Positions 10,602 through 53,191 of a DNA stretch of 64,000 nucleotides are shown here, in pieces. This DNA comes from Bacteroidales bacterium. GTDB taxonomy: Bacteria; Bacteroidota; Bacteroidia; Bacteroidales; UBA12481. The notes below the pieces were generated by a model. That model worked only from the letters and a program-made list of their open reading frames with translations, did no database searches and was not told the origin of the DNA. The translations under genes were made by a program, and so were the position numbers. Where the stretch lies: assembly GCA_041658425.1 (NCBI GenBank), contig JBBAAF010000002.1, positions 57,156 to 121,155 on the forward strand. Reading direction: 5' to 3'. Position 1 is the stretch's first letter, and every line of letters begins with the position of its first letter.

Positions 10602-11213
10602 ATGAATACAAGAGTGAAATTTTCGGTCGTGCTCTTATCCCTCGGATTGATCCTGGCTATCCTCCCTTCGCCTGCAAAGAGAATACTGAAGGCAAAACCG
10701 GAAAGACTGGTCTCCCTCCTTAACGATGAAAAATCGTGGTTTACCGCCGATCAGGTTGCCCGTTTTGTGGTAAGCGGTGACATTAACGTCAGAATCATCG
10801 ACCTCAGGCCTGAATCAGAATTCCGGAAGATGACCATTCCCGGTTCGGTTAACATACCCTATAATGAGTTTATAAAGAAGAATCCCGCATCCTTTCTCGC
10901 GGCTGGAGATGTGAAAAACATCCTGTGCTCAGATGTTGAACAGGAAGCGGCCAACGCGTTCATCCTCGCTAAAGGGTTGAACTTTAAAAACACTTATATT
11001 TTAAAAGGGAGTGTGAATGAATGGGTTAAAACAGTCATGAACAACAGCTTCTCCGGTGACAAGATAACGGCCAGGGAAAACGCGCTGTTTGAAACACGCA
11101 CAAGGGCCAGTAAGATGTACACAGATTTCAACAACATGCCCGACAGCCTGAAACAGAAATTCTTTGAATCCAGGCGCCTGGCCACAAAGAAACTCGATGG
11201 CGGTTGTGAATGA
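10602..11213 (+). CDS. Membrane-anchored or secreted single-domain rhodanese-like protein
   Basis: 203-aa ORF with an N-terminal hydrophobic anchor. Rhodanese-like layout (IIDLRPESEF, a candidate active-site Cys in ILCSDVEQEA, then ILKGSVNEW). Confidence 0.6.
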   Translation: MNTRVKFSVVLLSLGLILAILPSPAKRILKAKPERLVSLLNDEKSWFTADQVARFVVSGDINVRIIDLRPESEFRKMTIPGSVNIPYNEFIKKNPASFLAAGDVKNILCSDVEQEAANAFILAKGLNFKNTYILKGSVNEWVKTVMNNSFSGDKITARENALFETRTRASKMYTDFNNMPDSLKQKFFESRRLATKKLDGGCE

Positions 11214-16891: not shown

Positions 16892-16938
16892 AATTCAATT
16901 TTTTAAGTTGTGGATTTAATCACTAGATCAACTGATAT

Positions 16939-20482: not shown

Positions 20483-21368
20483 ATGAAACAAATTACGCAA
20501 GAAGATATCGCCCGGAAACTAAATGTCACCCGGATCACAGTGTCGAAAGCACTGAGGGATCATCCTGATATATCGGCCGCTATGAAGAAACGGGTGCTAC
20601 AGACCGCCGATGAGATGGGCTATTTGCCGAATCAGATTGCACAACAGTTAACCACCCGGACCACCAAAACCATCGGGGTGATTGTTCCCGATCTCGAAAA
20701 CAGCTTTTTCAGCCACGTGGTGAATAGCATTATCGATGCGGCAACCGATCGCGGTTACCAGATTTTACTCGCGGTGTCCAGGGAAAATGAGGAAATCGAG
20801 AAAAAGAACATCCGGAACCTGAGTGGTGTTCGATGATGACAAAGGGGTTCGCATGGCCATCGACCGGCTGGTTGTTGCCGGCTATTCACGTATCGCACAT
20901 TTTGCGGGGTATTCAACGACCAATATCGGAAAAGAAAGACTCGGGGGGTATAAGGCTGCCCTGATAAATAACAGCCTTATTGTCCGTGACAAGTGGATCA
21001 TTGAAGGAGGTTTTGAGCTGAACGACGGATATCATTCGTTCATGAAACTGTACGAACGGCATAATTTGCCGGAAATCGTACTAGCGGTAAACGACCGGGT
21101 GGCATTGGGCGCTTATAAAGCCATCAGGGAGCTGGGATTGCGCGTGCCTGAGGATATCGGGGTCGTTGGATTCGGCTTTACCGAAACGGCCGAAATGTTC
21201 AATCCTCCCTTATGCGTGATCAGTCAGGATCCCCGAAAAATGGGCCATCTTGCTGCCAACCGCCTCATGGATGAAATTCAGTCTTCATCAGTTTCAGGAG
21301 AAGAAATCAGAATTGATGAGACTTTTCAATGGAATAGTTCAGTTAAACAAAAAAATAGAGTGCAATGA
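20483..21368 (+). pseudogene. LacI-family regulator disrupted by an internal deletion and frameshift
   Basis: The HTH and early core (MKQITQEDIARKLNVTRITVSKALR ... IRNLSGVR stop at 20836) lie in one frame. The rest of the core (VFDDDKGVRMAIDRLVVAGYSRIAHFAG ...) lies in another frame starting at 20823. About 40 aa normally found between these blocks are missing. Confidence 0.75.
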
Positions 21369-23727: not shown

Positions 23728-24993
23728 ATGCCGCGTTTCGATAAAAATAAGACACTGACCCTGAGTGATGCCATCAAGGTGACACGGCCAAAATCCTTTA
23801 TGGTCATGGCTAAACCGATTGGACCGGTATGCAACCTGAATTGCACCTATTGCTATTATCTGGAAAAGGAGAAGCTGTATACTGATACCGGCAGTTTTAA
23901 AATGACCGGTGACGTATTGGAAAGCTATATCAAACAATTTATTGAATCACAAGAAGTTCCAATCATTACATTTACCTGGCAGGGTGGCGAACCCACTCTT
24001 CTGGGGCTCGAATTCTTTATTAAAGCAGTTGAACTTCAGCAAAAATACCGCGCAAGCAAGAAAATAGAAAATGCATTCCAAACCAATGGAACCCGTTTAA
24101 CGGAGGATTGGTGCCGTTTCTTTAAAAAGCACAATTTCCTGGTAGGGATTTCGATTGACGGCCCCGCCGAAATTCATGATAAATACCGCAAATCCAAATC
24201 GGGTAAGCCAACATATCAAGAGGTAATGAAAGGGATCCGGTTATTGAAAAGATTCCAGGTGGAGTTCAACACCCTTTCGGTAATCAATGATGCCAACGTG
24301 CTGAAACCTTTGGAAGTTTACCGGTTTCTCAAGAAGATCGGGAGCGGATACATTCAGTTCATCCCGATCGTTGAACGCCGGTCAGATATCGCGCCTCCCG
24401 ATGGCCTGACTCTGGTTTCACCCGCATACAGCGATCCTGCAAAACTGACCGATTGGTCGATAAGTGCCCGGCAATTTGGAAAATTTATGACTACGATTTT
24501 CGATGAATGGGTGCGGAATGATGTTGGCAAAGTATTTGTGCAGCTGTTTGATGTTACCCTGGCCAATTGGGTTGGTGCTCCTCCCGGCCTGTGTGTTTTT
24601 GCCGAAACCTGCGGGGAAGCAGCTGTGATGGAGCACAATGGCGATCTTTATTCGTGCGATCATTTCGTTTACACTGAATTTCTGCTTGGCAACATCCTTG
24701 AAACCCCGATGGGAGAAATGATGGCATCAGGCCGGCAGATTCAGTTTGGCAAGGACAAGCGCGATAACCTGCCCCGTCAATGCCTGATGTGTGATGTCCG
24801 GTTCGCCTGCCACGGCGGATGTCCCAAAAGCCGCATCGCCACAACTGAGGGAGGACAGCCCGGGCTCAATTGGCTGTGCGAAGGGTACAAATCTTTTTTC
24901 GAATACGTTAAACCGTACATGGATTTTATGGCTAACGAACTGGCTCACGAACGCCCGCCGGCTAATATTATGCATGCTTATCCTAACCAGTAA
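23728..24993 (+). CDS. Anaerobic sulfatase-maturating enzyme (radical SAM with SPASM domain)
   Basis: 421-aa ORF with CNLNCTYCYY (CX3CX2C) and GGEPTL. C-terminal Cys clusters (CDHF, CLMCDVRFACHGGCPK) are typical of anSME/AtsB-type maturases. Confidence 0.9.
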   Translation: MPRFDKNKTLTLSDAIKVTRPKSFMVMAKPIGPVCNLNCTYCYYLEKEKLYTDTGSFKMTGDVLESYIKQFIESQEVPIITFTWQGGEPTLLGLEFFIKAVELQQKYRASKKIENAFQTNGTRLTEDWCRFFKKHNFLVGISIDGPAEIHDKYRKSKSGKPTYQEVMKGIRLLKRFQVEFNTLSVINDANVLKPLEVYRFLKKIGSGYIQFIPIVERRSDIAPPDGLTLVSPAYSDPAKLTDWSISARQFGKFMTTIFDEWVRNDVGKVFVQLFDVTLANWVGAPPGLCVFAETCGEAAVMEHNGDLYSCDHFVYTEFLLGNILETPMGEMMASGRQIQFGKDKRDNLPRQCLMCDVRFACHGGCPKSRIATTEGGQPGLNWLCEGYKSFFEYVKPYMDFMANELAHERPPANIMHAYPNQ

Positions 24994-35897: not shown

Positions 35898-38057
35898 ATG
35901 AAAAACAACAGGTGTCTTCTGTTTCCCAAGACAATGATTGGTGCAATTATTCTTGTTCTTGCCGTGCAGTGCCAAACTCCTGTACAATCCCCGAAAATCA
36001 CCCAGGCTGTTTCTCCTCAGCAGAAGAACCGGGACGCCCGGTCTTTTTTCCCGAAAGCCGATCTGATGAAAATCGGGGCATTTTACTATCCGGAGCAATG
36101 GCCCCGGGAGCAGTGGGCCCGCGATTTCAATAATATGGCGGGATATGGATTTGAATTCACACACCTCGCCGAATTTGCATGGACTTTTCTGGAGCCGGAA
36201 GAAGGGGTTTACGAGTTTAAGTGGCTGGACGAGGCTATCGACCTGGCGTTTAAAGCAGGTCTCAAGATCATATTGTGTACTCCTTCGCTCGCCCCTCCGG
36301 CTTGGATGGGGGAAAAATATCCGGAAATTTACCTGGTCGGATCAAATGGCCGGCGCAAGGAACACGGGATACGCGCAAATGCTTCATTATCCAATCCCCG
36401 GTATCAGGAATTCGTTGATAAAATCGTCTCGGCCTTAGCAGAGGGCTATGGCAAAGATCCCCGGATATGGGGCTGGCAACTTGATAATGAACCGCTTGCA
36501 ACACCCGACTACAGCCCTTCCGCACGGGCAGCATTCCAACGATGGCTTAAAGAGCGTTATAGCACGATCGATAAACTGAATGCCGTTTGGGTTGGAAGTT
36601 TCTGGAGTACCCGCTACGACAATTTTGAACAGGTTTTGATACCCAACGAAGCCATGAATGAGGAAGACAAACTCAGCCCTCACTCTTTGCTCGATTTCCA
36701 GCGATTCACGGCAGATATTACCGCCGGGTTTCTGAACCATCAGGCAGATATTCTCAGGAACCATATACTTCCGGAACAATGGGTCACCACAAATTTTATC
36801 AACGTCAGCACTTCTTCTGATCCTCGACTGTCGGATCATCTGGATTTTCCAACGTTTACGATGTATCCGGTAAGCGGGAAAAATGAATTGGGCGGTAATA
36901 ATTTCCGGACCGGTATCCCCTTCCGGATTTACGAAGCCTGCGATTATTATCGGCCGATCGCCGGAATAACTGGATTGATGGAACTTCAACCCGGCCAGGT
37001 CAACTGGGGTTCGGTAAATCCCCAGCTCCTTCCGGGTACGGTCCACATGTGGATCATGGAGGCATTCGGCGGAGGTTGTTCGTTCCTGTGCACTTACCGC
37101 TACCGGCATCCGATCCGGGGCAGCGAAATGTACCATGAGGGTATTGTAGGAACCGACGGAGTGACGCTTTCGCAAGGAGGCCGTGAATTTGTTCAGGCCA
37201 TCCAGGAAATAAAACAACTTCGCACCGGGTATGATCCGGCAGCACCCATCCCGGAGATCCTGGCCAAACGCAGAACCGCTCTGCTCTGGAGCCATGAGGT
37301 GATGTGGGATCTGGATATTCAAAAACAGTCCGTCATGTGGAACACCTGGAGACACCGGAATAATTATACGCTGGCAGTCAAATCTGCAGGGGCACCGATG
37401 GATTTCATCTCTGAAAAAGATGATTTTGATGCCTATCCATTTCTGATCGCACCTGCTTATCAACTGGTTGACAGCGTATTGGTCCGGAAATGGAAAACCT
37501 ACGCAGAAAATGGGGGACATCTGATCTTAACCTGCCGGACCGGACAAAAAGATAAGAACGGTCACTTTTTCGAGGCAGGCTGGGCTGCTCCTATCAGGCC
37601 TCTAATTGGCGCCGATCTTGATTTTTTTGATATGCTGGTGCCGGATATGTATGGTACGGTAAAGTCAAACAACATTAATTATCAGTGGAACACATGGGGT
37701 GAAGTACTGACTCCTCACAACGGCACTGAAGTTCTGGCAACCTACGCTGACCAGTATTATGCGGGAAAAGCAGCGGCAGTTACCCGCCGCCTGGGCAAGG
37801 GATCAGTCACTTTTATCGGTGTTGCCTCCAAAGACGGTTTGCTGGAACGTCAGCTTGTACGGGATGTATATGAAAGGGCGGGCGTCATGATTGAAGATCT
37901 TCCAAAAGGTGTTTTCATGGAATGGCGGGATGGATTTTTTGTTGCTGTAAACTATACCGATCAGGATTTCCGGATTCCAGTTCCGGCTAACGGGCATATC
38001 CTCGTGGGAAGCAATCCGCTAAAAACTGCACAGGCAATCGTGTGGACATTGAAATAA
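35898..38057 (+). CDS. Glycoside hydrolase family 42 beta-galactosidase-like, secreted
   Basis: I place the start at the ATG at 35898, because the ORF-track start at 35865 would overlap the upstream gene. Signal peptide present. GH42 N-domain pattern (FYYPEQWPREQW, HLAEFAWTFLEPEEGVYEFKWLDEAIDL, WQLDNEP). Confidence 0.85.
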   Translation: MKNNRCLLFPKTMIGAIILVLAVQCQTPVQSPKITQAVSPQQKNRDARSFFPKADLMKIGAFYYPEQWPREQWARDFNNMAGYGFEFTHLAEFAWTFLEPEEGVYEFKWLDEAIDLAFKAGLKIILCTPSLAPPAWMGEKYPEIYLVGSNGRRKEHGIRANASLSNPRYQEFVDKIVSALAEGYGKDPRIWGWQLDNEPLATPDYSPSARAAFQRWLKERYSTIDKLNAVWVGSFWSTRYDNFEQVLIPNEAMNEEDKLSPHSLLDFQRFTADITAGFLNHQADILRNHILPEQWVTTNFINVSTSSDPRLSDHLDFPTFTMYPVSGKNELGGNNFRTGIPFRIYEACDYYRPIAGITGLMELQPGQVNWGSVNPQLLPGTVHMWIMEAFGGGCSFLCTYRYRHPIRGSEMYHEGIVGTDGVTLSQGGREFVQAIQEIKQLRTGYDPAAPIPEILAKRRTALLWSHEVMWDLDIQKQSVMWNTWRHRNNYTLAVKSAGAPMDFISEKDDFDAYPFLIAPAYQLVDSVLVRKWKTYAENGGHLILTCRTGQKDKNGHFFEAGWAAPIRPLIGADLDFFDMLVPDMYGTVKSNNINYQWNTWGEVLTPHNGTEVLATYADQYYAGKAAAVTRRLGKGSVTFIGVASKDGLLERQLVRDVYERAGVMIEDLPKGVFMEWRDGFFVAVNYTDQDFRIPVPANGHILVGSNPLKTAQAIVWTLK

Positions 38058-38205: not shown

Positions 38206-40596
38206 ATGAAACAAAATCGACGCATCAAAGAATTTAGAAAGTGGACCATGTTCTTAAGAGTCATTTATCCATTGCTTCTTTTGTTTATGCCAGCAGCAAA
38301 CTCCGGCATTAAAGCCCAAAACAAGGATGAACTTGACATTTCAAACTATTGCTCGGAAATTATTGTAAATGGTAACATAAAGGTCTCACTGTACACACAT
38401 ACCATGTTCAGGGTTCGCACATCTGAACTTAAAGGGGAAAAATTCCCTCCAAAATATGAAATCCCATTCCTGATCGGCAAACTTAGCAACTGGAAACCTG
38501 TATCATTTTCACAAAAGGAGGATAACGAATATCACTACATTGAAACCGACAGATTACAGATCAGGATATCGAAGCGTGACTGGTCATGGACGGTATGGAC
38601 ACCCGGAGGAGGAAAACAGATCTACCCGTCGGCAGGGAAAATTTATGGCATGTTTAAGGACGGCTATTCGGTTTTCGACAATGCCAGTGCATTTGATGAA
38701 AGGAACAAGAACAGCCGTTTTTCCCATTGGTTTTATAATCCCGCAACACAAAAGTATACTGATATTTACCTGTTCGAGGATTTGATATTTGATAAGTATT
38801 TTATCTATGGACCTGATTATCCCTCATTATTCAGTCAGTTTAACGAGCTTGTAGGACCTGAACCGATGCTCCCGATTAAAGGCTATGGATTCTTTCAGAC
38901 ACAGCATATTGGATGTTCGGGAAACCAGGAGAAATTGCTGGAACTCGCCCGTAAATTAAGAGAAAGAGATATTCCGTGTGACAACCTGATCATCGATTTT
39001 GAATGGGGTGACGGATGTCCAGGTGAGGATGAAAAATACTGGGGACAATCCCTGGATTGGTCTCCTGCCTATAGTAACCCTCTGACACCGAAACAGATGA
39101 TCGCCAAACTGGATTCCATGCATTTCAATGTCATGCTGATCCATCACAGTGCCCCGGATTTTTCTAACCGCGAGCTGGATACCCGCAGAAGGCCGGGTGA
39201 CTGGACCTCCAAGGTTTATCCGGAAAATGTGTGGTGGGAAAAATACCGGGAGAAGCTGGATATAGGCGTAAGCGGCACCTGGCAGGATACCCGCCAGAAT
39301 GATTTGACCGACGGATTGATCTGGTCGTGGACACAGAATTATATCGGACCTGAAAAAAGGGTCCTTTTTCTGGGCTGCAGGAAAATGATGGATTTGAATC
39401 CCTTTGAGCTGGAGCGTGACAATACCATTCCCGCCAATGACCTGATCGGTTCCCGGCGCTATCCCTTCAGATGGACAGAGGATGTGAGCAATACCTACCG
39501 CGAACTGAAATGGCACGTAAACGGCATCACAAATACCCATGGTTCGATGAAAGGCGTGAATTATATTACTGCCGATTGTTTTGGAAAGAACTGGAAGGTA
39601 CAGGCACGATGGAACCAGTTTATTGATTTCAACTCAGTTTCACGCTCTCACACATCCAAACCCTGGGAAATAATTACCGATTTCGGGGCGTTGGCAGAAA
39701 TTATGAATTTCAGGAAGAATGAGGTTCAGGAATCCCCTTCACTAGAGAAAACAGATCCTCTTCAAAACAATAAAGAGGTATTGGCAAAAACCGGACAAAC
39801 AGCAGAACCCAGTGTACGTATCCATCGAAAGCTCAGATACCGGCTTATCCCATACCTCTATTCAACAGCTTTTGTGAACTACCTGACCGGTTATCCGATC
39901 AGCCGGCCATTGCTTCTGGCATTTCCTAATGATCTGCACTGCAACAAAGATCAATGGCCTTTGCAATATATGTTTGGAGAGAATTTCCTGGTTGTCCCTG
40001 TTTATGCTGATTTCAACAGCATGGAAATTTATCTGCCCGAAGGATCAACATGGATTGACTATTGGGACAAAGCCGTATATAAAGGAGGACAGGTGATCGA
40101 TTATAATACTTCCGATATTGAGAAGCTTCCTTTGTTTGTCAGGTCCGGTTCAATCATACCTATGCGTAAAGAACAGAACTGGCTTGACACTGGAGAGATC
40201 TGGGATCCGCTGACGCTCGATATTTATCCCGACAGCACTTCTTCCTTTATATTGTATGAAGATGACAAGCGCACCACCTATTACCAAAAAGGGGAATTCA
40301 GCAAAACTACAATTTCTTGCCAGGCAGATCCTTCAGGAACAGAAATCAAAATCGGAGAGGCTGCAGGTGATTACAAAGGAAAACCTGAAAGCCGCAAAAT
40401 AGTTCTCCAGGTTAACCTGGTAGACAAGACTCCGGCCCAGGTGCAGGGAAATAAATGTAATATGGTAAAATGCAATAATTTGGATGGTATCAACGAAGCT
40501 AAATGCGGTTGGTTGTATGATAAGGAGACTAGGAGAGTATTAATAATAGTTGAAACAAAGACTTCTGAAAGTACTATCATTCAAATAATTAAATGA
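38206..40596 (+). CDS. Distant glycoside hydrolase family 31-like enzyme, secreted
   Basis: 796-aa ORF with a signal peptide. GH31-like landmarks (PIKGYGFFQTQ, IPCDNLIIDFEW, GTWQD, RRYPFRWTED, LPLFVRSGSIIPM), but the signature positions diverge (WQDTRQ rather than W.DMNE; ADCFG rather than DIGGF). Confidence 0.6.
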   Translation: MKQNRRIKEFRKWTMFLRVIYPLLLLFMPAANSGIKAQNKDELDISNYCSEIIVNGNIKVSLYTHTMFRVRTSELKGEKFPPKYEIPFLIGKLSNWKPVSFSQKEDNEYHYIETDRLQIRISKRDWSWTVWTPGGGKQIYPSAGKIYGMFKDGYSVFDNASAFDERNKNSRFSHWFYNPATQKYTDIYLFEDLIFDKYFIYGPDYPSLFSQFNELVGPEPMLPIKGYGFFQTQHIGCSGNQEKLLELARKLRERDIPCDNLIIDFEWGDGCPGEDEKYWGQSLDWSPAYSNPLTPKQMIAKLDSMHFNVMLIHHSAPDFSNRELDTRRRPGDWTSKVYPENVWWEKYREKLDIGVSGTWQDTRQNDLTDGLIWSWTQNYIGPEKRVLFLGCRKMMDLNPFELERDNTIPANDLIGSRRYPFRWTEDVSNTYRELKWHVNGITNTHGSMKGVNYITADCFGKNWKVQARWNQFIDFNSVSRSHTSKPWEIITDFGALAEIMNFRKNEVQESPSLEKTDPLQNNKEVLAKTGQTAEPSVRIHRKLRYRLIPYLYSTAFVNYLTGYPISRPLLLAFPNDLHCNKDQWPLQYMFGENFLVVPVYADFNSMEIYLPEGSTWIDYWDKAVYKGGQVIDYNTSDIEKLPLFVRSGSIIPMRKEQNWLDTGEIWDPLTLDIYPDSTSSFILYEDDKRTTYYQKGEFSKTTISCQADPSGTEIKIGEAAGDYKGKPESRKIVLQVNLVDKTPAQVQGNKCNMVKCNNLDGINEAKCGWLYDKETRRVLIIVETKTSESTIIQIIK

Positions 40597-40686: not shown

Positions 40687-41769
40687 ATGAAAAATATACA
40701 CCGAAGATCCTTTCTAAAGTCAGGTGCGTTATCATTATCCGGACTCATGCTCCCAGGTACCGTTCTGACATTTTGCAAAGAAGGATCTTTAATTAAGGAT
40801 TTTAAGAAGAGGTTTAAAGACAAAACATTGGGTTGTTTCATGGGTGCGGCCATTGGAGACTCAATGGGCGGACCTGTAGAATGCCAGCATTACCTGAGGA
40901 TCAGAAAATATGCCGGCAATTTTAATGATCTTCTGCCATTTGGAAAACCAATTTCTTTTTTTGATCCCCCCGGAAATGGATGGGCTCAACGAAGGGACCC
41001 CGGAACTATTACCGACGATACATATATCAGGATTGATTTGCTGAACTTCTTCCTCCATGTTAACCCACCTTATTCTGCCGAGAAACTGGTAGAATATCTC
41101 CTTGAAAATTCTGATTTTTCGGGATGGTGGGAACCACCTAAGAACCAATTGAATCGGATTAAAAATGGTGAATTCCCAGCGAAAAATGCCCGGCAGTTTA
41201 TGGATATCCTTTCAGCAGTTGTTGCTGGTCAATCGGCTGCCTTCAAAAATGATGCATCAATCGATTCAGTTGTTAAAACTGTCCTAGATAATTCCGGTGA
41301 TAAGACTAGAAAATTGTTTGAGCGGGCCATCAACATAGGGCTTGACTCGCAATCGGCCGATAAACTCTACGATAACCTTTATGCACACGCTTCTGTTGCT
41401 AATTCGACACATACTGGTGAATATAACAGGCCTGAAGGCCCTCTCCCACCCGTGGAAGATATCAAATATAGTGAAAATGAATGCTCTTCAATAGCATTTG
41501 CTGAGCAGCAGCCATGGGCGCTTGCTTACCTTGTATTTGGCAATGGGGATCCGGAAAAAACGCTCCTCACAGCTGTCAAAGGAGGAAGAGACGCCGACAG
41601 TATTGCTACAAATACAGCTTCCTGGCTTGGTGCTTTATATGGATTATCAGTATGGCCTGAGAAATGGATCTCTGCTGTACTGAGATCGAATCTTGTGGAT
41701 TTCGATTTAATGAAACTTGGCGATAAGCTGGCTGAAAAAGCTCTGCGACAGGGATTTGTTCAACTTTAG
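40687..41769 (+). CDS. Tat-exported ADP-ribosylglycohydrolase (ARH/DraG)-fold protein
   Basis: 360-aa ORF with the twin-arginine motif HRRSFLK (nt 40699-40719). ARH N-terminal metal-site block (GCFMGAAIGDSMGGPVE) and C-terminal block (GGRDADSIATNTASWLGALYG). Confidence 0.8.
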   Translation: MKNIHRRSFLKSGALSLSGLMLPGTVLTFCKEGSLIKDFKKRFKDKTLGCFMGAAIGDSMGGPVECQHYLRIRKYAGNFNDLLPFGKPISFFDPPGNGWAQRRDPGTITDDTYIRIDLLNFFLHVNPPYSAEKLVEYLLENSDFSGWWEPPKNQLNRIKNGEFPAKNARQFMDILSAVVAGQSAAFKNDASIDSVVKTVLDNSGDKTRKLFERAINIGLDSQSADKLYDNLYAHASVANSTHTGEYNRPEGPLPPVEDIKYSENECSSIAFAEQQPWALAYLVFGNGDPEKTLLTAVKGGRDADSIATNTASWLGALYGLSVWPEKWISAVLRSNLVDFDLMKLGDKLAEKALRQGFVQL

Positions 41770-41824: not shown

Positions 41825-44140
41825 ATGAAATCAAAGAAATTGATAAGTGTTATACTTCTGTTAATATGCATTGCATATTCTCATGGTACTTATTCCCAGT
41901 CCTCAAATGAAAAGTTAACAGGAAAGACACTCGTGGCTGAAATGAGATCGTATAATGGCAGGACAACTTTGTTTATTAACGGGCAACCGCACGATGGAAT
42001 TTTCTGTTCAACACTAGCCAGCAATAAGCAGGAATTCATAGAAGCTGGATTTGATGTATTTAATATTATAGATGGAGGTAATCCGTGGGTTTCTGATAGT
42101 CTCTACGATTTCCAGGAAACTGATGAATATAACCTGGATAATATAATTGACAATTTCCTTCAGGAGAAACCTGACGCAAAGATCATTGTAAGGCTTTCAT
42201 ATGGGTATCCAAGAAACTTTTGGTGGGCTGTTGAGCATAAAGACCAGCAAGCAGTACCACATTGGAGAGATTTGGGCCGTAAAATGCCATCCTATGCATC
42301 CCTTAAATGGCGAGAAGAAGCCGGTAAGGCGTTGGAGATCACGGTCAGGCATCTGGAGGAGAAGTTTGGCAACAACATTATTGGATATCTTCCGGGAAAC
42401 GGAAGCTGTGGGGAGAATTTTGAACAGTATGCCTTTACTGAAATTGGCGATCGTTTTATTAATGGATATCAGATGGGTGATTACAGTGAACCCATGCAGC
42501 AGGCATATCGTGAGTATGTAAAAGATAAATACAAAACGATTCAGGCTGTTAACGATGTTTATCGATTAAACCTGCAGTCATTCAGTGAATTGAAGATACC
42601 GGAACCTGACCGGAGGCTGAATGCCACATTTGGGATCCTCAGGTCAATCAGCAATGAACAGGCTGTTATTGACTACTTTGAGATTTTTAACCGCCAGGTT
42701 TACGAAACAGTGGCTCATTTTGCAAATAAGATCAAAGAAGCTACCAACCATAATAAACTTGTATTTGTCTTTTACGGATATAACTGGCTTGAACAGCCGA
42801 GGGGTGGAGTAACACAATCGAGAAGCGGTCATGTCAATCTGGAAGAAATGATCTCCTGTCCGGATGTAGACTATATTGCAGCCCCCTACGAGTATTCATT
42901 CCGTCAGCTGGAAGGAGTTGTATCATCACAAGGGGTAGTTGGTAGTGTCATCAGACGGGGGAAGCAATTTCTTCATGAATTGGACGGTTACACATACCTG
43001 GCAAAGTACTGGCTATCGGAGCATCATAATCCAACAACAGCAGCTGAGAGTGTTAATTTATTACGCCGCGACCTTACCAAAGCGCTTATGGATGGAGCTT
43101 CTGCCTGGTTTATGGATCCTGTCGCCGGAGGCCTGTATAATAGCCCGATGGGTGAAGAGCTGAAAAGAACCCTTGAAATGGGCCGCAAAATATATTTCGA
43201 TGCAGGCGTAGATAATCGCCAGGTGGCTGTTGTTTTACAGTCACGGGATGGCTTTTATTACAGGGAAGGTGAATCACTGCGTTCACCACTTATCCAGCAA
43301 TTCAAACAGTTTGAACTGGAACGCATGGGACTTGGCTACGACGATCTGATGTTGGAAGACCTGAAATATCTCGATCCAAAATCAACTGAACAATATAAAT
43401 TCTGGATTTTCCCAAGCTCAGTCCATTTTGATGATGCACAGCTTGAACTGATTAAAAAGCATTGTATGCGTAACGGGAATCATATACTGTGGGTTTATGC
43501 TCCGGGAGCAGTTTCAGAAAAAGGTATTGATCTCCAACGTATGGAAATGATAACCGGGTTTAAATATGGGTACACCATGGAGCAGGGAGAACTGGCCGTT
43601 AAAACCATCGAGGGAGGACAGGGATATCTTGCCGGAAGGAAATCTCCAATCGTTTATGGAACCTATGGAGAACTTTCACCTGATTTCATTAATTATTATT
43701 CTTCTCTTCGTCATTATCCCGGTTCTGATGTCGGATTCAGTGTAAGCCCCAGGTTCTATGTTAAAGAAGCAGATAATATTCTGGGATATATGCCAGATAT
43801 AGCAGATCAGCCTGCCGGATTGGCAGTAAAAAACATGGGTAACTGGGTCTCAGTCTATAGTGCTGCACCTCTTGTCCCCAAAATCATTTTAAGAAATATT
43901 GCCAGAGTGGCTGGTTGCCACGTCTATACTGACTTCCTCGGACAAACTTATCAAAGTCAGAACTATGTTGGCTTTTTTGCACATGAAACTGGTATCTGCA
44001 ACTTCAAACTGCCATACCGCTCCAGGATTACTGACGTTTATAATAATAAGGTAATTGCAGAAGATGCTGACTCTTTTAGTATTTATCTCCGGGTCAACGA
44101 TGCCGTATTGTTTAACTACGAACCTGCCATATCAAAATAA
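41825..44140 (+). CDS. Secreted protein of unknown family, tandem paralog A (possibly a TIM-barrel glycosidase-like fold)
   Basis: 771-aa ORF with a signal peptide. I recognise no family motif. Its paralog follows directly downstream. Confidence 0.6.
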   Translation: MKSKKLISVILLLICIAYSHGTYSQSSNEKLTGKTLVAEMRSYNGRTTLFINGQPHDGIFCSTLASNKQEFIEAGFDVFNIIDGGNPWVSDSLYDFQETDEYNLDNIIDNFLQEKPDAKIIVRLSYGYPRNFWWAVEHKDQQAVPHWRDLGRKMPSYASLKWREEAGKALEITVRHLEEKFGNNIIGYLPGNGSCGENFEQYAFTEIGDRFINGYQMGDYSEPMQQAYREYVKDKYKTIQAVNDVYRLNLQSFSELKIPEPDRRLNATFGILRSISNEQAVIDYFEIFNRQVYETVAHFANKIKEATNHNKLVFVFYGYNWLEQPRGGVTQSRSGHVNLEEMISCPDVDYIAAPYEYSFRQLEGVVSSQGVVGSVIRRGKQFLHELDGYTYLAKYWLSEHHNPTTAAESVNLLRRDLTKALMDGASAWFMDPVAGGLYNSPMGEELKRTLEMGRKIYFDAGVDNRQVAVVLQSRDGFYYREGESLRSPLIQQFKQFELERMGLGYDDLMLEDLKYLDPKSTEQYKFWIFPSSVHFDDAQLELIKKHCMRNGNHILWVYAPGAVSEKGIDLQRMEMITGFKYGYTMEQGELAVKTIEGGQGYLAGRKSPIVYGTYGELSPDFINYYSSLRHYPGSDVGFSVSPRFYVKEADNILGYMPDIADQPAGLAVKNMGNWVSVYSAAPLVPKIILRNIARVAGCHVYTDFLGQTYQSQNYVGFFAHETGICNFKLPYRSRITDVYNNKVIAEDADSFSIYLRVNDAVLFNYEPAISK

Positions 44141-44296
44141 TTGTGGAAATGTTATTTGGCAGGTATGATCAGGACATGAAATCGGTTGTGATTACCGCCA
44201 TTGCTGAAAGTTCAAAAGAAACTCAGATAATCCTCAGTAAATAATAGCAGAACTGCTATCAAAAAAATAGATTATATCATTAATTGTCAGAATATT

Positions 44297-46600
44297 ATGA
44301 AAGCTTTTGATCTCACGGGACTGGTAATTGCGTTACTTATCACCTCATTTTTACATCAGGCCTATTCACAGCCTTCAGATAAAAAGGCGCTTGTTGCTGA
44401 GATGAAATCGTATAACGGCAGAACAACCTTATTCATCAACGGGCAGCCCCACGACGGCATTTTTTGCTCCACCCGGGCGGGTAACAGGCAGGATTTCATC
44501 GATGCCGGATTTGATATATTTAATATAATAGATGGTGGTAATCCCTGGGTTGCCGATAGCCTTTACGATTTCCAGGAAACTGATGAGTATAACCTGGATA
44601 AGCTCATCACGGATTTCCTGTTCGGGAAACCCGATGCAAAAATTATCGTCAGGCTTGGATACGGATATCCCAGAAATTTCTGGTGGGCCGTTGAGAATAA
44701 AGACGAGCAGGCAGTACCGCACTGGCGAAACTTTGGCCGTAAAATGCCATCCTATGCATCACTGAAATGGCGCGAAGAAGCCGGAAAAGCACTGGAAGTC
44801 ACCGTCAGGCATCTGGAAGAGAGGTTTGGCAATAATATCATCGGATATCTTCCCGGAAACGGAAGCTGCGCAGAGAATTTTGAACAGTATGCCTACACGG
44901 AAATCGCTGACCGATACACCAATGGATATCAGATGGGCGATTACAGTGAACCCATGCAGCGGGCTTATCGGGCTTATGTAAAAGACAAATACAAAACTAT
45001 CGATGCCATCAATAGTATTTACGGACTTAAATTACAGTCATTCAGCGAATTAAAGATTCCAGAGGTGGATCAAAGGTTGAATGCAGGAATTGGAATTCTA
45101 CGGTCAATAAGGGATGAGCAGGCTGTTCTCGATTACTATGAGATTTTTAACCGGCAGGTGTATGAAACAGTCGTTTTTTTTGCAAAGAAGGTAAAAGAAG
45201 CCACAAACCGCAACAAGCTGGTGTTTGTCTTTTACGGGTATAACTGGGTTGAACAGCCTAGCGGGGGCATAACCCAGGCCCGAAGCGGACATGTCAACCT
45301 GGAGGAGGTGATCTCCTGCCCTGATGTGGATTATATCGCCGCCCCCTATGAATACTCATTCCGTCAGCTGGAAGGCGTGGTCTCAGGGCAAGGAGTGGTA
45401 GGAAGCGTTATCAGGAGAGGGAAGCAATATCTGCATGAATTTGATGGTTCAACTTATCTGAAAAACTGCTGGCCATCGGATCACCATAATCCTACAACGC
45501 CTGCTGAGAGCGGAAATTTACTGCGCCGCGATATGACCAAGGCCCTTATGGAAGGGACTTCCCTCTGGTTCATGGATCTTGCAGGCGGGATGTTCAGCAG
45601 TCCTGCAATGATCAGTGAGCTGAAGAAGACTCTGACAATCGGACGCGAGATCTATTTCAAGGCGGGGTTCGACAACCGGCAGGTGGCAGTGGTTCTGCAG
45701 TCACGCGATGGTTTTTACTATCGTGAGGGTGAAGCTTTGCGTGCTCCACTGATCCAGCAATTCAAACAATTTGAATTGGAGCGGATGGGTCTGGGGTATG
45801 ATGATCTTTTACTGGAAGACCTGAAATATCTGGATCCGAAATCAACTGAACAATATAAAGTCTGGATTTTCCCCAGTTCAGTGCATTTCGATGACTCACA
45901 GCTTGAACTGATCAAAAAACATTGCATGCGCAATGGGAATCATATTTTATGGGTCTATGCTCCGGGAGCCTTATCAGAAGCAGGAATCGACCTCCGGCGA
46001 ATGGAACAGATTACCGGTTTCAAGTACGGTTATACTATGGAACCGGGAGAGCTCGCCGTTAAAACCATTGAGGGAGGACAGGGATATCTCGCCGGGCGAA
46101 AATCGCCAATCGTTTACGGAACCTATGGTGAACTGTCTCCGGATTTCATCAATTACTACTCCTCATTGCGGCATTACCCCGGCTCGGATGTCGGATTCAG
46201 TGTCAGCCCCAGGTTTTATATTACTGAGGCAGACCATATTCTGGGGTATTTGCCTGATATTAAGAACCAGCCAGCCGGATTTGCCGTGAAAAACATGGGG
46301 AACTGGGTTTCAGTATACAGTGCTGCACCCCTTGTACCAAAAATCATTTTGCGAAATATTGCCCGGACCGCCGGTTGTCATGTGTATACTGACTTTCCCG
46401 GACAAACCTATCAGAGTCAGAACTACGTCGGCTTTTTTGCCCATGAAACAGGGACCTGCACCATCAAACTGCCTTACCGGTCCAGGGTTACTGATGTTTA
46501 TAACAACCTGGTAATTTCAGAGGGAACCAGCACCTTCAGCATAAATCTACAGGTAAATGACGCCGTTCTGTTTAACTATGAACCTGATAAATCGAAATAA
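44297..46600 (+). CDS. Secreted protein of unknown family, tandem paralog B
   Basis: 767-aa ORF with a signal peptide. Collinear with paralog A along its whole length, roughly 80-90 percent amino-acid identity by eye after the signal peptide. Confidence 0.6.
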   Translation: MKAFDLTGLVIALLITSFLHQAYSQPSDKKALVAEMKSYNGRTTLFINGQPHDGIFCSTRAGNRQDFIDAGFDIFNIIDGGNPWVADSLYDFQETDEYNLDKLITDFLFGKPDAKIIVRLGYGYPRNFWWAVENKDEQAVPHWRNFGRKMPSYASLKWREEAGKALEVTVRHLEERFGNNIIGYLPGNGSCAENFEQYAYTEIADRYTNGYQMGDYSEPMQRAYRAYVKDKYKTIDAINSIYGLKLQSFSELKIPEVDQRLNAGIGILRSIRDEQAVLDYYEIFNRQVYETVVFFAKKVKEATNRNKLVFVFYGYNWVEQPSGGITQARSGHVNLEEVISCPDVDYIAAPYEYSFRQLEGVVSGQGVVGSVIRRGKQYLHEFDGSTYLKNCWPSDHHNPTTPAESGNLLRRDMTKALMEGTSLWFMDLAGGMFSSPAMISELKKTLTIGREIYFKAGFDNRQVAVVLQSRDGFYYREGEALRAPLIQQFKQFELERMGLGYDDLLLEDLKYLDPKSTEQYKVWIFPSSVHFDDSQLELIKKHCMRNGNHILWVYAPGALSEAGIDLRRMEQITGFKYGYTMEPGELAVKTIEGGQGYLAGRKSPIVYGTYGELSPDFINYYSSLRHYPGSDVGFSVSPRFYITEADHILGYLPDIKNQPAGFAVKNMGNWVSVYSAAPLVPKIILRNIARTAGCHVYTDFPGQTYQSQNYVGFFAHETGTCTIKLPYRSRVTDVYNNLVISEGTSTFSINLQVNDAVLFNYEPDKSK

Positions 46601-46635: not shown

Positions 46636-47967
46636 ATGAGCAATGGCAATGATGAAGGCCTGAAAAGGGAAATTGGCGTTGTAGGATTAGCCTCCAACGC
46701 CATCAACAGCATTGTAGGCGGTGGAATTTTCGTGTTGCCTGCGATTGTTGCAGGCATGATGGGACCTTCAGCTATTGTAGCTTATCTTATTTGTGGAGTC
46801 GCGGTAATCCTGATAACACTCTGCTTTGCCGAGATTGGAAGCAAGGTAATTGCAAGCGGCGGAGCTTATGCTTATGTAGAAGCGGCTTTTGGAATTTTTG
46901 CCGGATTTCTGACAAATACCTTGTTCTGGTTCGGGTTCGGCGTTCTGAGTGATGCTGCAATTGCAAACGCTATGGCGGATATGCTGGCCATAAATTTTCC
47001 TGCTTTTAATTTACCATTCTTCAGAGCGCTGTTTTTTTTGCTCATATATACGGGATTTACCCTGGTCAATATCAGAGGGGTTAAACAAGGTATCAATATG
47101 GTTAAAATCAATACTCTTATCAAACTGATCCCTCTGTTGGTATTGATTACCTACGGGTGGGCCGGCGTATCGGCAAAGAACCTGCAATGGTCGCAGCTGC
47201 CTGCACTCAAAGATATTGGCGAGGTATCTCTGATCCTGTTCTTTGCTTTTGCGGGCGGGGAGATGGCTTTGAACAACAGCGGTGAAATAAAAAATCCCAG
47301 GCGCACTGTACCTTTCGGATTACTGCTGGGTATTGGAACAGTTGTTATTTTTTATGTATTGATTCAAACCATTTCGCAGGGCGTGCTTGGGCCGGAACTG
47401 GCGTTAAACAAGGAGGCTCCGCTTGCCGCAGTTGCCAAAAGGCTGATGGGCGGATTTGGATCTGCATTAATGATTTCAGGAGCCGTGATTTCCATTTTCG
47501 GAGCCTTAAGCGGAGGGGTTTTATCTTACCCGAGGTTATTGTTCGCCGGATCAAGGAATAACCTTTTACCGGTATTCCTTGCCAAAATCCATCCGAGGTT
47601 TGCAACGCCGTACTGGGCTATCTGCACCTATTCCGTGCTGGTTCTGATCTTTACAATATCTGGTGGTTTTAAGCAATTAGTTATCGTTTCCAGCGCATCC
47701 CTTCTGTTGATTTACCTGGCTGTGGTGCTGTCAACCATAAAACTGAGGCTTAAAAAGGATCCTTTGCCCCCAGGAACTTTTAAACTCCCCGGAGGGATCA
47801 TTATACCTTCTGTCACCCTCGTCCTGATCGTCTGGTTATTATCCCGTTTAACCAAAAATGAAGCCATAGGGATCGCCTTGATGATTCTTGCATTGACTCT
47901 TATTTATCTCATAATGAAATTAATAAAAACAAATCAGCATTCTACACAGCAAAATAAACTCCCATGA
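46636..47967 (+). CDS. APC-superfamily amino-acid permease
   Basis: 443-aa ORF with about 12 hydrophobic helices and the N-terminal GGGIFVLPA motif typical of amino-acid/polyamine permeases. Its stop overlaps the GH3 start (ATGA at 47964-47967). Confidence 0.8.
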   Translation: MSNGNDEGLKREIGVVGLASNAINSIVGGGIFVLPAIVAGMMGPSAIVAYLICGVAVILITLCFAEIGSKVIASGGAYAYVEAAFGIFAGFLTNTLFWFGFGVLSDAAIANAMADMLAINFPAFNLPFFRALFFLLIYTGFTLVNIRGVKQGINMVKINTLIKLIPLLVLITYGWAGVSAKNLQWSQLPALKDIGEVSLILFFAFAGGEMALNNSGEIKNPRRTVPFGLLLGIGTVVIFYVLIQTISQGVLGPELALNKEAPLAAVAKRLMGGFGSALMISGAVISIFGALSGGVLSYPRLLFAGSRNNLLPVFLAKIHPRFATPYWAICTYSVLVLIFTISGGFKQLVIVSSASLLLIYLAVVLSTIKLRLKKDPLPPGTFKLPGGIIIPSVTLVLIVWLLSRLTKNEAIGIALMILALTLIYLIMKLIKTNQHSTQQNKLP

Positions 47968-50353: not shown

Positions 50354-52714
50354 ATGCAAAAACTAACTCTGTTCATTGCGGTGATTTTGACAAGATTTAC
50401 AGCCAGTGCGCAGCCCCGACCTGATCACCTGTTTTTTAAAGACCGGTTGCAACCGCTTTCCGGAGATAATATCTTTAAAACCGAGGGATATTTCAACTGG
50501 TGCACTTCAATCATCAAAGGGGATGACGGGAAATACCACCTTTTCTACTCCCGCTGGAAGAGTGAATATTCGTTCAACGGCTGGTTAACGCACTCCGAGA
50601 TAGCCCATGCTGTTTCAACCAATCCAGCCGGTCCCTGGAAGTACAAAGAAACCGTGTTAATGGGCCGCGGGAAAGGACACTGGGATGCAATTAACGCCCA
50701 TAATCCCAAGATCGAACATTTCGAAGGGAAGTATTACCTGTATTATATTTCAACCAATCTGGGCGATAAGGCTTACTCTGCCCAGGACTTGATTGAAACA
50801 GCCCAAACCGGTGATTCGCACCCAAACTGGAAGATCCTGCGACCCAACCAGCGTACGGGTGTTGCAGTTGCCAATACAATCGATGGACCCTGGAAGCGGA
50901 TGAATCAACCATTGATAGAGCCATCGGGGCCTATCACTACCCTGACAGTAAATCCGGCCATTACACAAGGAAAAGACGGCAAGTATTACCTGATCGTAAA
51001 AGGTGACAAACCCAATGAAACCCGCTTCATCAGAAACCAGGCCATTGCCATTTCCGATTCGCCGGCCGGACCGTTCGTCATGCAGCCCAAACCGGTCATT
51101 GACTATCTCGATACAGAGGATATGTCGATGTGGTACGATACAAAAAGAGATTTTTTCTATGGGGTATTTCATGCCCATACATTCATTGGAATGGTGAGCT
51201 CACCGGATGGGCTGAACTGGAAAAAGGCTACCGAATTTTGCCTGATGAACAAAAGACTTCCTTTGACTGATGGATCGGAGATTATCCCGGAATACCTGGA
51301 ACGTCCGTTTGTTTATCAGGAGGATGGCGAGCCCCTGGTGCTAAGTATGGCCGTCAAAAAAGGGGATGAATCTTATATCGTTTTTGTTCCTGTTAAAGAA
51401 AACAAGATACCGGTTCCGAATAAAAGACAGCTAGCCTGGCAGGAAGCTGAGATGGGGGCCATATTTCACTATGATCTGCATGTATTCGATGGGCAGAAAT
51501 ACGAGCAGGATGGTAATCGCATCAACCCGGTTCCCGACTATCAGATTTTCAATCCCAAACAGCTTGATACTGACCAATGGATCAAGGCGGCTAAAGATGC
51601 CGGTTTTACTTTTGCCCTGCTGACGGCTACTCACGAAACCGGATTTGCCCTTTATCAGTCGGAAGTGAATCCGTATTGCATGAAAGCGCTTAAATATCAG
51701 GACGGTAAAGGTGATCTGGTCCGCGATTTCGTGAATTCGTGCCGGAAATACGGAATCAAACCCGGCATCTATCTGGGCATCCGGTGGAATTCTTTTTTAG
51801 GGGTACACGATTTTAAAGTGAACGGAGAAGGAACATTCCGCGTAAATCGACAGAAATGGTACAACGCAATGGTTGAGGGTATGGTGAAGGAGATTTGTAC
51901 CCATTACGGAGAATTGTTTGAGATCTGGTTCGATAGGGGTGCTGATTCTCCTGAGAATGGTGCACCCGACGTGTTGCCTATCGTGCAGCAGTATCAGCCT
52001 AATTGCCTGTTTTACCACAACAAACAGCTGGCCGAAGCCCGGTGGGGAGGTTCCGAAACGGGTACCGTGAGCTATCCATGCTGGGCCACTTTTCCTTATC
52101 CTGATTGTTCAGCAGGTGTTCATGGTGAGATTGCGGAAAACGATTTTCAATTACTGAAAGAAGGTGATCTGAATGGAAAATACTGGATGCCGGCCATGTC
52201 CGATGTACCCCTTCGCGGCTTCAATGGGCATCACGAATGGTTCTGGGAACCGGGCGATGAAGTAAATATCTTTCCGCTGGACAGTCTGATGGATATGTAT
52301 TATAAGTCGGTTGGCCGCAATTCCACTTTGATCATGGGATTGACGCCAGATTCCACCGGGTTACTGCCGGAACCGGATGTAAAGCGATTGAAGGAATGGG
52401 GTGATGAAATCAAACAGAGATTCTCAAACCCGGTTGCAACTAATTCAGGAAAGGGAAAAATAACAGAATTGAAGCTAGATAAGAAGAGAAAAATCAGTCA
52501 TGTAGTCATTCAGGAGGATATATCGCAAGGTGAACGGATCCGCAAGTATTCGGTTGAGGCATTTATCAATGGCAAGTGGATAACCCTCTGCGAAGGGGAA
52601 TCGGTCGGACATAAGCGTATTCAACAGTTTAAACCTGTTGATTGCCAGCGTTTAAGACTTGTTGTTAATGATGCGGTTGCCGAACCGGTTATAAAGAATT
52701 TATCTGTTTATTAG
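50354..52714 (+). CDS. Fusion protein: GH43-like beta-propeller domain, GH29 alpha-L-fucosidase domain and a discoidin-like domain
   Basis: 786-aa ORF. The N-terminal 350 aa look like a propeller (DDGKYHLFYSRW, AHNPKIEHFEGKYYLYYIS, GKDGKYYLIVKG). From about nt 51400 there is a GH29-like TIM barrel (AEMGAIFHYD, LLTATHETGFALYQS, IWFD). The C-terminal 100 aa look like an F5/8 type C domain. Confidence 0.65.
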   Translation: MQKLTLFIAVILTRFTASAQPRPDHLFFKDRLQPLSGDNIFKTEGYFNWCTSIIKGDDGKYHLFYSRWKSEYSFNGWLTHSEIAHAVSTNPAGPWKYKETVLMGRGKGHWDAINAHNPKIEHFEGKYYLYYISTNLGDKAYSAQDLIETAQTGDSHPNWKILRPNQRTGVAVANTIDGPWKRMNQPLIEPSGPITTLTVNPAITQGKDGKYYLIVKGDKPNETRFIRNQAIAISDSPAGPFVMQPKPVIDYLDTEDMSMWYDTKRDFFYGVFHAHTFIGMVSSPDGLNWKKATEFCLMNKRLPLTDGSEIIPEYLERPFVYQEDGEPLVLSMAVKKGDESYIVFVPVKENKIPVPNKRQLAWQEAEMGAIFHYDLHVFDGQKYEQDGNRINPVPDYQIFNPKQLDTDQWIKAAKDAGFTFALLTATHETGFALYQSEVNPYCMKALKYQDGKGDLVRDFVNSCRKYGIKPGIYLGIRWNSFLGVHDFKVNGEGTFRVNRQKWYNAMVEGMVKEICTHYGELFEIWFDRGADSPENGAPDVLPIVQQYQPNCLFYHNKQLAEARWGGSETGTVSYPCWATFPYPDCSAGVHGEIAENDFQLLKEGDLNGKYWMPAMSDVPLRGFNGHHEWFWEPGDEVNIFPLDSLMDMYYKSVGRNSTLIMGLTPDSTGLLPEPDVKRLKEWGDEIKQRFSNPVATNSGKGKITELKLDKKRKISHVVIQEDISQGERIRKYSVEAFINGKWITLCEGESVGHKRIQQFKPVDCQRLRLVVNDAVAEPVIKNLSVY

Positions 52715-52738: not shown

Positions 52739-53191
52739 ATGAGAAACTGGAATTATCTGAAGCGCCCGGTTGGTGCAGGTTTACTGGCAACATCATTGAT
52801 GTCAGTACTTTCATCCTGCAGTTCAGCCGTTCAAAAATTGGATGGGAAAAGCTTTGTTCCGATGCTTCTTCAAAAAGGCACAACGGATAAAGGCAGGAAT
52901 CTCTACTGGCATTTTCCCAACAACTGGGGGCCGACCGGTCCGGGAATCGCAACTACCAGCACCATACGAAGCAGCGACTGGAAGCTTATTTACTGGTATG
53001 AAAACCAGCATTTTCAATTGTTTAACATCCTTGAAGACATTGGTGAACTTCACAACCTGGCTGGTGAAAATCAGAAGAAAGTGAAAGAACTGGCAAAGGA
53101 ATTGGGGCAATATCTCCGCAGTGTGGATGCACAGCGTCCAATATTCAAGAGCACCGGAAAACCGGTTCCCTGGCCTGATGAATTGATTTAG
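52739..53191 (+). pseudogene. Sulfatase remnant: a lipoprotein-type signal joined directly to a sulfatase C-terminal subdomain
   Basis: 150-aa ORF. Residues 30-150 match the C-terminal part of S1 sulfatases (DGKSFVPMLLQ, LYWHFP, RSSDWKLIYW, LFNILEDIGELHNLA). The whole catalytic N-domain, including the FGly motif, is absent. Confidence 0.7.

Follow-up and report, generated by a model that had tools for sequence, protein, structure and literature searches.

Two adjacent genes, which we have designated X1 and X2, lie within a polysaccharide utilisation locus (PUL) of a Bacteroidales bacterium (GCA_041658425.1, contig JBBAAF010000002.1); the 64,000 nt stretch of this contig that was analysed is referred to as the window. 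X1 and X2 probably encode paralogous, exo-acting and most likely periplasmic glycoside hydrolases that belong to a large uncharacterised family (the X family) related to GH42, GH35 and GH14, as judged from sequence comparison and a structural model. The novelty is at the family level, inside a well-known fold group; the acid loop is unusual, and the conserved set of neighbouring genes is striking. Positions are those of the window and residues follow X1 numbering unless X2 is named; coordinates are collected in Table 1.

Both genes are intact open reading frames (ORFs). A BLASTP alignment of the two collinear proteins showed 633/772 identities (82%) with 6 gap positions, and the genes shared 77.6% nucleotide identity. 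Identity was 67% over the first 100 amino acids, 78-86% between amino acids 101 and 500 and 92% between amino acids 501 and 700. An earlier note, made from the sequence alone, had described two neighbouring genes with a 156 nt spacer whose products were collinear, about 80-90% identical, divergent in their signal peptides and especially conserved towards the C-terminus, all of which was confirmed. The motifs that it quoted (QQFKQFELERMGLGYDDL, HCMRNGNHILWVYAPGA, ITGFKYGYTME, PIVYGTYGELSPDF...SPRFY, GNGSC.ENFEQY and KQ.LHE.DG) were each found in X1 and in X2.

The two N-termini, which are the least conserved part of the pair, begin with basic residues, continue into a hydrophobic core and end in YS followed by Q, and look like substrates of signal peptidase I. 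Gln at position +1 after signal cleavage is frequent in Bacteroidota. A lipoprotein was ruled out, as there is no lipobox around Cys15 of X1 and the N-terminus of X2 contains no Cys. Promoter- and terminator-like sites between 40500 and 47200, a region that includes the spacer, were not more frequent than in shuffled sequence.

Fold and family of X1 and X2

Searching Pfam with X1 and X2 revealed matches to the GH42 profile (PF02449) of 26.7 and 25.7 bits for the pair, above the gathering score of 21. These matches were partial, covering about 100 of the 376 profile positions (138-237), whereas the bona fide GH42 encoded elsewhere in the window matched positions 2-376 (3e-109). Neither protein matched the GH42 middle domain profile (PF08532, GH42M) in Pfam, even at E≤1, or the GH35 catalytic profile (PF01301) at E≤1, the likeness to GH35 being structural only, and NCBIfam returned nothing for either.

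Profile comparisons extended the relationship. A 40-sequence family profile matched PDB sequences of GH42 beta-galactosidases (3e-10) and GH14 beta-amylases (1.7e-7). Using hhalign, the X family aligned with the window's own GH42 at 96.5% probability and with a 24-sequence GH42 alignment at 98.1% probability (E 8.8e-14) over 560 columns. The latter alignment spanned the barrel and the 'trimerisation' domain and ran into the C-terminal domain, and both alignments paired X1 residues 463-700 with the GH42 middle domain.

An AlphaFold2 model of X1 (pLDDT 87.1, pTM 0.90) was compared with the PDB using Foldseek. Full-length matches were found to the GH35 beta-1,2-glucosyltransferase IaSGT (3e-27), many GH42 enzymes (1e-26 to 1e-18) and the GH35 enzyme GlmA (1e-21), followed by GH164 and GH151 at about 1e-15. 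TM-scores were approximately 0.6 for GH35 and GH42 and 0.5 for GH164 and GH151, with 10-16% identity overall. In the model, assigned with DSSP, a (beta/alpha)8 barrel is followed by an alpha/beta domain B, which is the best-conserved domain within the close family, and by a C-terminal beta-sandwich, domain C.

Taken together, the profiles and the model indicate that X1 and X2 are distant relatives of the GH42, GH35 and GH14 TIM-barrel glycosidases. This places them in the GH42-like architecture group, but by sequence they fall into none of the families that have been characterised within it. The earlier note had guessed that the proteins are hydrolases distantly related to clan GH-A, with a middle region reminiscent of GH42, and had been unable to name a CAZy family from motifs; the hhalign alignment, which runs through the GH42M-equivalent domain, and the full-length Foldseek matches bear out the guess. 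It had proposed Pfam and remote-homology searches as the check and had named a confident match to an established family as the result that would speak against it. These searches gave the partial GH42 match in Pfam and the distant, full-length GH35 and GH42 matches in Foldseek; no family-level match was found in Pfam, NCBIfam, the PDB sequence search or Foldseek against the PDB, which served as proxies for CAZy.

GH42 comprises beta-galactosidases and alpha-L-arabinopyranosidases (1KWG, 4UNI, 5XB7 and the window's own enzyme). X1 and X2 share with it the order of TIM barrel, alpha/beta domain (aligned by hhalign with the 'trimerisation' domain) and beta-sandwich, a Glu after strand 4 and another on strand 7, and a helical insert after strand 4 with the pattern D-Y-S-x-x-x-x-x-A-[FY]-R-x-[WFY]-[LV]-x-x-[KR]-Y. 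They differ from it in being only 11-16% identical, in having the acid motif G-E-W (G-E-N in the window) on a longer loop where GH42 has N-E, and in the strand 7 motif, which is K-x-W-L-x-E-x-D instead of M-E-Q-x-P-G. Moreover, a genuine GH42 is encoded separately within the same locus.

The three-domain GH35 enzymes, bacterial and archaeal, are represented by IaSGT (7VKW-7VL5) and the exo-beta-D-glucosaminidase GlmA (5GSL, 6JOW, 8OUG). They have the same domain order and are among the best structural matches (TM-scores 0.58-0.63), but X is 11-15% identical to them and the likeness in sequence is limited to one helix of 53 residues. As IaSGT gave both the top Foldseek matches and the sole match of a single-sequence PDB search, X1 and X2 might mainly be transglycosylases that remodel periplasmic oligosaccharides. 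We consider this very unlikely: IaSGT is only 13-15% identical, its E-values are barely better than those of the GH42 hydrolases, the single-sequence match is this 53-residue helical insert, which is also common to GH42, GH14, GH50 and GH167, and X1 and X2 are surrounded by exo-hydrolases in a catabolic PUL.

The same GH42-like architecture group includes the GH164 beta-mannosidase (7OMI), the GH151 alpha-L-fucosidase (6TVK) and the GH167 exo-carrageenase (6PTM, 9WHD). Their matches to X are far weaker than those of GH42 and GH35 and show no family-level sequence similarity. GH167, described as 'GH42-like', shares the helix after strand 4 with X (E 1e-3 to 1e-2), and the 'GH42-like' genes described in carrageenan loci (PMC5943477, PMC6923384) belong to GH167. 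An identity of X with GH167 was rejected, the match being only about 1e-3 and limited to that one helix.

Catalytic residues and the acid loop

Conservation was first counted in the 40 sequences of the narrower family alignment and then in a wide-family alignment of 137 sequences, consisting of X1, X2 and 135 representatives with 22-46% identity to X1; percentages refer to the latter and strand ends were read from DSSP on the AlphaFold2 model. Glu197, in the loop after strand 4, was invariant in the narrower set (40/40) and kept in 135/137 sequences of the wider one; for Glu385, which ends strand 7 (amino acids 381-386), the counts were 39/40 and 134/137. D387, just past strand 7, was present in 137/137. 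The two motifs in which the earlier note had picked out conserved acidic positions hold E197 and E385, which rank with the best-conserved carboxylates of the family.

Clan GH-A enzymes, as known from GH5, carry Arg, Glu, His, Tyr, Glu and Trp at strands 3, 4, 5, 6, 7 and 8. The same layout was found in the X family, where R123 (end of strand 3, 93%), E197, H336 (after strand 5, 96%), Y357 (99%), E385 and W428 (strand 8, 93%) stand at or after the strand ends and are 93-99% conserved. Further conserved positions were D349 and P354, which like Y357 lie on strand 6 or just after it (98-99%), K380 on strand 7 (97%), R415 in helix 7 (96%) and D431 on strand 8 (91%).

Glu197 and Glu385 therefore stand out in the alignment, and sequence and model together make them the likely catalytic pair. 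Glu197 would act as the acid or acid/base and Glu385, which like its GH42 counterpart lies on strand 7, is the predicted nucleophile. Around the pair, Arg123 (b3), His336 (b5), Tyr357 (b6) and Trp428 (b8) would form a clan GH-A-like set, from which retaining double displacement is predicted. A retaining mechanism is favoured with moderate confidence because of this residue set and the GH42/GH35 architecture. The stereochemical outcome is the least secure step of the proposal, because the canonical Asn is absent and the acid loop resembles that of beta-amylases.

Several observations weigh against the assignment of X1 and X2 as retaining, GH42-like hydrolases. The Asn-Glu acid/base motif of GH42 was not found, the corresponding sequence being C-G-E-N in X1, C-A-E-N in X2 and G-E-W in the family consensus; across the family, the position of the GH-A Asn before the acid Glu is occupied by G, A, D, E or W. 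The acid loop can be aligned, with no gaps, to the loop of GH14 beta-amylase, which is an inverting enzyme (E 1.7e-7), and model confidence is lowest around residues 199-205, beside Glu197. Additionally, hhalign sets E363, and not E385, opposite the GH42 nucleophile. No assayed or solved X-family enzyme was found, nor was a solved structure or a paper describing the family or its gene module, in the PDB and the literature, and the closest structures are 11-16% identical. Finally, the members at three loci (L004, L014 and L015) sit without carbohydrate genes nearby.

The E363 register was rejected because this residue is Gly in 117/137 relatives, while E385 and D387 on strand 7 are 98% and 100% conserved; that register also sets X strands against GH42 helices.

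The acid loop deserves closer comparison. The family sequence 'vpgggscgEwf' aligned with 'LSGGPAGELRY' of the Bacillus cereus beta-amylase (1B90), so that the G-G-P-A-G-E loop of GH14 has its counterpart in X as G-G-x-x-G-E. The Glu of the B. cereus SGGPAGE sequence is the catalytic acid of this inverting enzyme. The helical insert that follows the loop and a Glu on strand 7 are also shared with GH14. X1 and X2 could on these grounds be inverting, beta-amylase-like exo-glycosidases, with Glu197 as the acid on an extended loop and Glu385 as the base, and would then cleave linkages that are axial (alpha-D or beta-L). The Pfam GH14 profile (PF01373) scored 12.5 bits with X1 and 18.7 bits with X2, below the cut-off of 27, and came close to it with one relative (P0045, 26.8 bits); another piece of evidence is a relative annotated as 'family 14 glycosylhydrolase'. 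The missing Asn before the acid Glu points the same way, as does the location of Glu197 8 residues past strand 4. The acid Glu of GH14 likewise lies 8 residues beyond strand 4. We nevertheless regard inversion of this kind as unlikely. The GH14 likeness is confined to residues 120-239, whereas the three-domain layout and the best full-length structural matches are those of GH35 and GH42, and Arg, His, Tyr, Glu and Trp at strands 3, 5, 6, 7 and 8 are the signature of clan GH-A retaining enzymes. GH14 enzymes themselves are single-barrel proteins, some with a starch-binding domain, that lack GH42-type domains B and C and act on alpha-1,4-glucan.

An alternative that we hold to be rather improbable is a new GH family bridging GH42 and GH14, in which a GH42-type three-domain scaffold would be combined with a beta-amylase-type acid loop lacking the GH-A Asn. 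Its specificity would lie outside the known families, for example on a sugar that bears sulfate or amino substituents within a sulfated glycan containing fucose; a divergent GH31 would be an obligate partner, a pyridoxal phosphate (PLP) enzyme and an SDR would process the released unit downstream, and X1 and X2 would differ in the +1-subsite. The coexistence of a GH-A-like residue set with a GH14-like acid loop makes the family a useful test case for the relationships between retaining and inverting barrels.

That X1 and X2 are not catalytic at all, but carbohydrate-binding proteins or pseudo-enzymes on a glycosidase scaffold, would be in keeping with the lack of a family member with demonstrated activity and with the detection of only part of the barrel by Pfam. 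It is extremely improbable given that the carboxylates and the GH-A-like residues are 93-100% conserved among relatives only 22-46% identical to X1, and that both genes are under strong purifying selection.

Asn occupies the position after the acid Glu (42416-42418 in X1 and 44876-44878 in X2) in X1, X2 and the three relatives nearest to them, and Trp does so in 132/137 sequences. W198N is a rare change adjoining the predicted active site, specific to the duplicated clade and shared by all of it.

Duplication and divergence of the two copies

Comparison of X1 and X2 gave a synonymous divergence (dS) of 1.86 and a ratio of nonsynonymous to synonymous divergence (dN/dS) of 0.055, uniform along the gene. 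Synonymous sites were equally saturated in the C-terminal part (proportion of synonymous differences, pS, 0.67-0.68), and the two genes are nowhere identical over more than 26 nt. Gene conversion was therefore rejected as the source of the high C-terminal identity, which is attributed to selective constraint because the synonymous sites are evenly saturated and the identical runs short.

In a neighbour-joining tree X1 grouped with the relative P0001 (88%) and X2 with P0003 (86%), and the members of the sister clade (P0005-P0008) were single-copy wherever their context is known. The contig encoding P0001, the closest relative (JGI sample 3300075153), had the same gene order as the window and also carried two X copies, with a second GH31 gene between them (X1-GH31-X2); the duplication is therefore older than that speciation. 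Either a GH31 and X unit was duplicated and the second GH31 then lost in the window, or the relative gained a GH31. The substitution patterns indicate an old duplication, both copies of which have been held by strong purifying selection.

The differences between the copies were unevenly placed. Of 39 fixed differences between X1-type and X2-type sequences, 13 fell within 57 residues (382-438), where about 3 would be expected. At five positions (S389Y, K393A, P397L, L433V and M437L) X1-type sequences have lost a residue whose conservation in the rest of the close family is 92-100%, and C395Y in X1 replaces a residue held by 67% of the close family. At all six positions (389, 393, 395, 397, 433 and 437) X2 has the family consensus. 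X1 is the derived copy, and X2 keeps the ancestral loop after the nucleophile. This suggests that X1 has been altered near the active site, with a changed aglycone or +1-subsite preference.

Retention of the two copies had been interpreted in the earlier note as sub-functionalisation. The constraint on both copies and a duplication that predates speciation are in line with that view; the asymmetry of the divergence, with X1 derived near the active site, is not, and looks more like neo-functionalisation of one copy. Alternatively, X1 and X2 may be redundant, kept for dosage or robustness, with the same specificity and with differences due to neutral drift. Every family-invariant residue, including both catalytic Glu, is identical in the two proteins, which are 82% identical overall and share the clade-specific W198N. 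Redundancy is possible but doubtful, since both lineages have passed through at least one speciation after an old duplication (dS saturated) at such a low dN/dS, and since the X1-type replaced strongly conserved residues after the nucleophile, in the segment where the fixed differences are concentrated.

The G+C content of X1 was 42.1% and that of X2 46.7% (window 44.9%), although the two genes are adjoining and both old.

Gene neighbourhood and spread of the family

The locus begins with genes for an ECF sigma factor and an anti-sigma factor, followed by SusC, SusD, an SDR, two GcvP-like genes, GH42 and GH31. An ADP-ribosylglycohydrolase-like gene, X1 and X2 come next, and then an APC permease, GH3, a GH43/GH29-like gene, sulfatases, GH29 and a beta-helix protein. 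Sulfatases, GH29 fucosidases and SusC/D recurred around X in independent loci of several phyla. A GH31 gene was next to X, or no more than 3 genes from it, in 7 loci (the window, the P0001 contig, L001, L002/L009, L011, L012 and L007), and in L007 the stop codon of X overlaps the start of GH31. The loci L002/L009 (Acidobacteriaceae), L011 and L012 were alike, encoding X and GH31 with a TonB-dependent receptor, GH2, a GntR regulator, an SDR and a PLP enzyme, and L011 and L012 encoded sulfatases too. The PLP enzyme was a two-subunit GcvP-like protein in L002/L009 and a class-III aminotransferase in L011 and L012. The SDR and GcvP-like pair beside GH31 and X was also present on the P0001 contig and in L002/L009. 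The combination of SDR and PLP enzyme suggests that the locus may also process an amine-bearing unit.

Because of the tight linkage to GH31, sulfatases and fucosidases, the X family is a candidate for an unassigned step in the breakdown of sulfated fucose-rich glycans. From the GH-A-like residue set, X1 and X2 are predicted to remove, as exo-acting hydrolases, a beta-D or alpha-L pyranoside from the non-reducing end. They would trim oligosaccharides imported by SusC/SusD in the periplasm, probably in sequence with the adjoining divergent GH31, the GH29 fucosidases, GH3, GH42 and the sulfatases, and the overall target would be a sulfated, fucose-containing glycan.

The close clade, delimited by at least 43% identity, was represented by 28 clusters in a collection of 5.8 billion proteins; a survey of 185,579 species genomes found it at 6 loci, all six in metagenome-assembled genomes. 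Its hosts were Bacteroidales, Acidobacteriaceae, Planctomycetota, Phycisphaeraceae and one unclassified bacterium. Metagenomes yielded 3,365 representative clusters of the wider family at E≤1e-30, and 6,888 when the threshold was relaxed to E≤1e-3, mostly as full-length matches; the X family is thus large, and rare only in its close clade. In some members, N-terminal CBM4_9-like modules or S-layer homology (SLH) repeats were recognised as well. Apart from the relative annotated as family 14, members looked up by name bore no label other than 'hypothetical' or 'beta-galactosidase', and almost all of those named derived from metagenome-assembled genomes. With more than 3,000 clusters, a single assigned activity would supply the annotation for thousands of genes of sediment, soil and gut-type bacteria (Bacteroidota, Acidobacteriota, Planctomycetota, Verrucomicrobiota and other taxa). 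The turnover of sulfated fucose-rich glycans affects carbon storage in sediments.

The contexts of four distant members (P0029, P0037, P0019 and P0025) were inspected and set aside, as they showed no consistent carbohydrate theme. In L014 (9274-13662), the X homologue was flanked by genes for a 3-keto-disaccharide hydrolase-like protein and a DUF4185 protein instead of GH31 and sulfatases, which hints that the family may be used on more than one glycan.

Table 1. Coordinates of X1, X2, their predicted functional parts and neighbouring genes in the window
Feature	Position	Strand	Description
SDR	32085-32879		inside PUL
GcvP-like subunits	32907-34301 and 34319-35890		divergent two-subunit glycine-cleavage P-protein-like PLP enzyme
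GH42	35865-38057		bona fide GH42 of the window (Pfam)
GH31	38206-40596	+	divergent GH31 alpha-glycosidase; Pfam GH31 domains; nearest solved relatives match chiefly the C-terminal part
ADP-ribosylglycohydrolase-fold protein	40687-41769	+	Pfam PF03747; twin-arginine signal RRSFLK (MKNIHRRSFLKSGA...); directly upstream of X1
X1 (copy 1)	41825-44140	+	intact ORF, 771 aa; putative three-domain GH42-like glycosidase, the derived paralogue
X1 signal peptide (predicted)	41825-41896	+	aa 1-24, MKSKKLISVILLLICIAYSHGTYS then Q; cleavage predicted from hydrophobic core and YS/Q end
X1 (beta/alpha)8 barrel	41927-43210	+	aa 35-462; DSSP on AlphaFold2 model, hhalign to GH42
X1 barrel strands b1-b4			aa 59-63, 78-81, 119-123 and 185-189 (DSSP)
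X1 barrel strands b5-b8			aa 312-315, 350-355, 381-386 and 426-431 (DSSP)
X1 Glu197 codon (GAG)	42413-42415	+	proposed general acid or acid/base; motif G-x-G-x-x-G-E; codon checked
X1 divergence hotspot	42968-43138	+	aa 382-438, from strand 7 through the loop and helix 7 to strand 8
X1 Glu385 codon (GAA)	42977-42979	+	proposed nucleophile (or base); motif K-x-[WFY]-[LIV]-x-E-x-D; codon checked
X1 domain B	43211-43744	+	aa 463-640; alpha/beta; GH42 'trimerisation' equivalent by hhalign
X1 domain C	43745-44137	+	aa 641-771; C-terminal beta-sandwich; DSSP all-beta over 643-767
X1-X2 intergenic spacer	44141-44296		AT-rich, 156 nt; read from the sequence
X2 (copy 2)	44297-46600	+	intact ORF, 767 aa; ancestral state kept in post-nucleophile loop
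X2 signal peptide (predicted)	44297-44368	+	aa 1-24, MKAFDLTGLVIALLITSFLHQAYS then Q; cleavage predicted
X2 Glu193 codon	44873-44875	+	counterpart of X1 Glu197
X2 Glu381 codon	45437-45439	+	counterpart of X1 Glu385

The ADP-ribosylglycohydrolase-like gene was found directly upstream of X in 4 Bacteroidales loci (the window, the P0001 contig, L001 and L005); an exported enzyme of this fold within a glycan locus is unusual. Downstream of X2, the PUL contains an APC-family amino-acid permease (46636-47967), the stop codon of which overlaps the start of GH3 (47964) and which is also encoded on the P0001 contig. The GH43/GH29-like gene (50354-52714) encodes a 786 aa protein with a weak GH43-like N-terminal part and a weak GH29 alpha-L-fucosidase-like C-terminal part, and may be a fusion enzyme. 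It is followed by an ORF of 150 aa (52739-53191) whose only match is to SGSH_C, the C-terminal domain of sulfatases, and which lies just upstream of a full 842 aa sulfatase; this is likely a fragment or remnant.

Just upstream of the ECF sigma gene, a radical-SAM/SPASM protein (23728-24993) resembles an anaerobic sulfatase-maturating enzyme and would fit an anaerobe that activates the sulfatases of the locus. A 181 aa ORF (20823-21368) has only a LacI-type periplasmic-binding domain, its DNA-binding N-terminus apparently missing, and may be truncated or have a miscalled start. A second, divergently oriented glycan locus occupies 78-20139 on the minus strand and encodes GH127, GH2, two laminin-G-like proteins, GH10 and a SusD/SusC pair of its own (15425-20139); it is interrupted by rhodanese and sulfur-transport genes (9469-12254).

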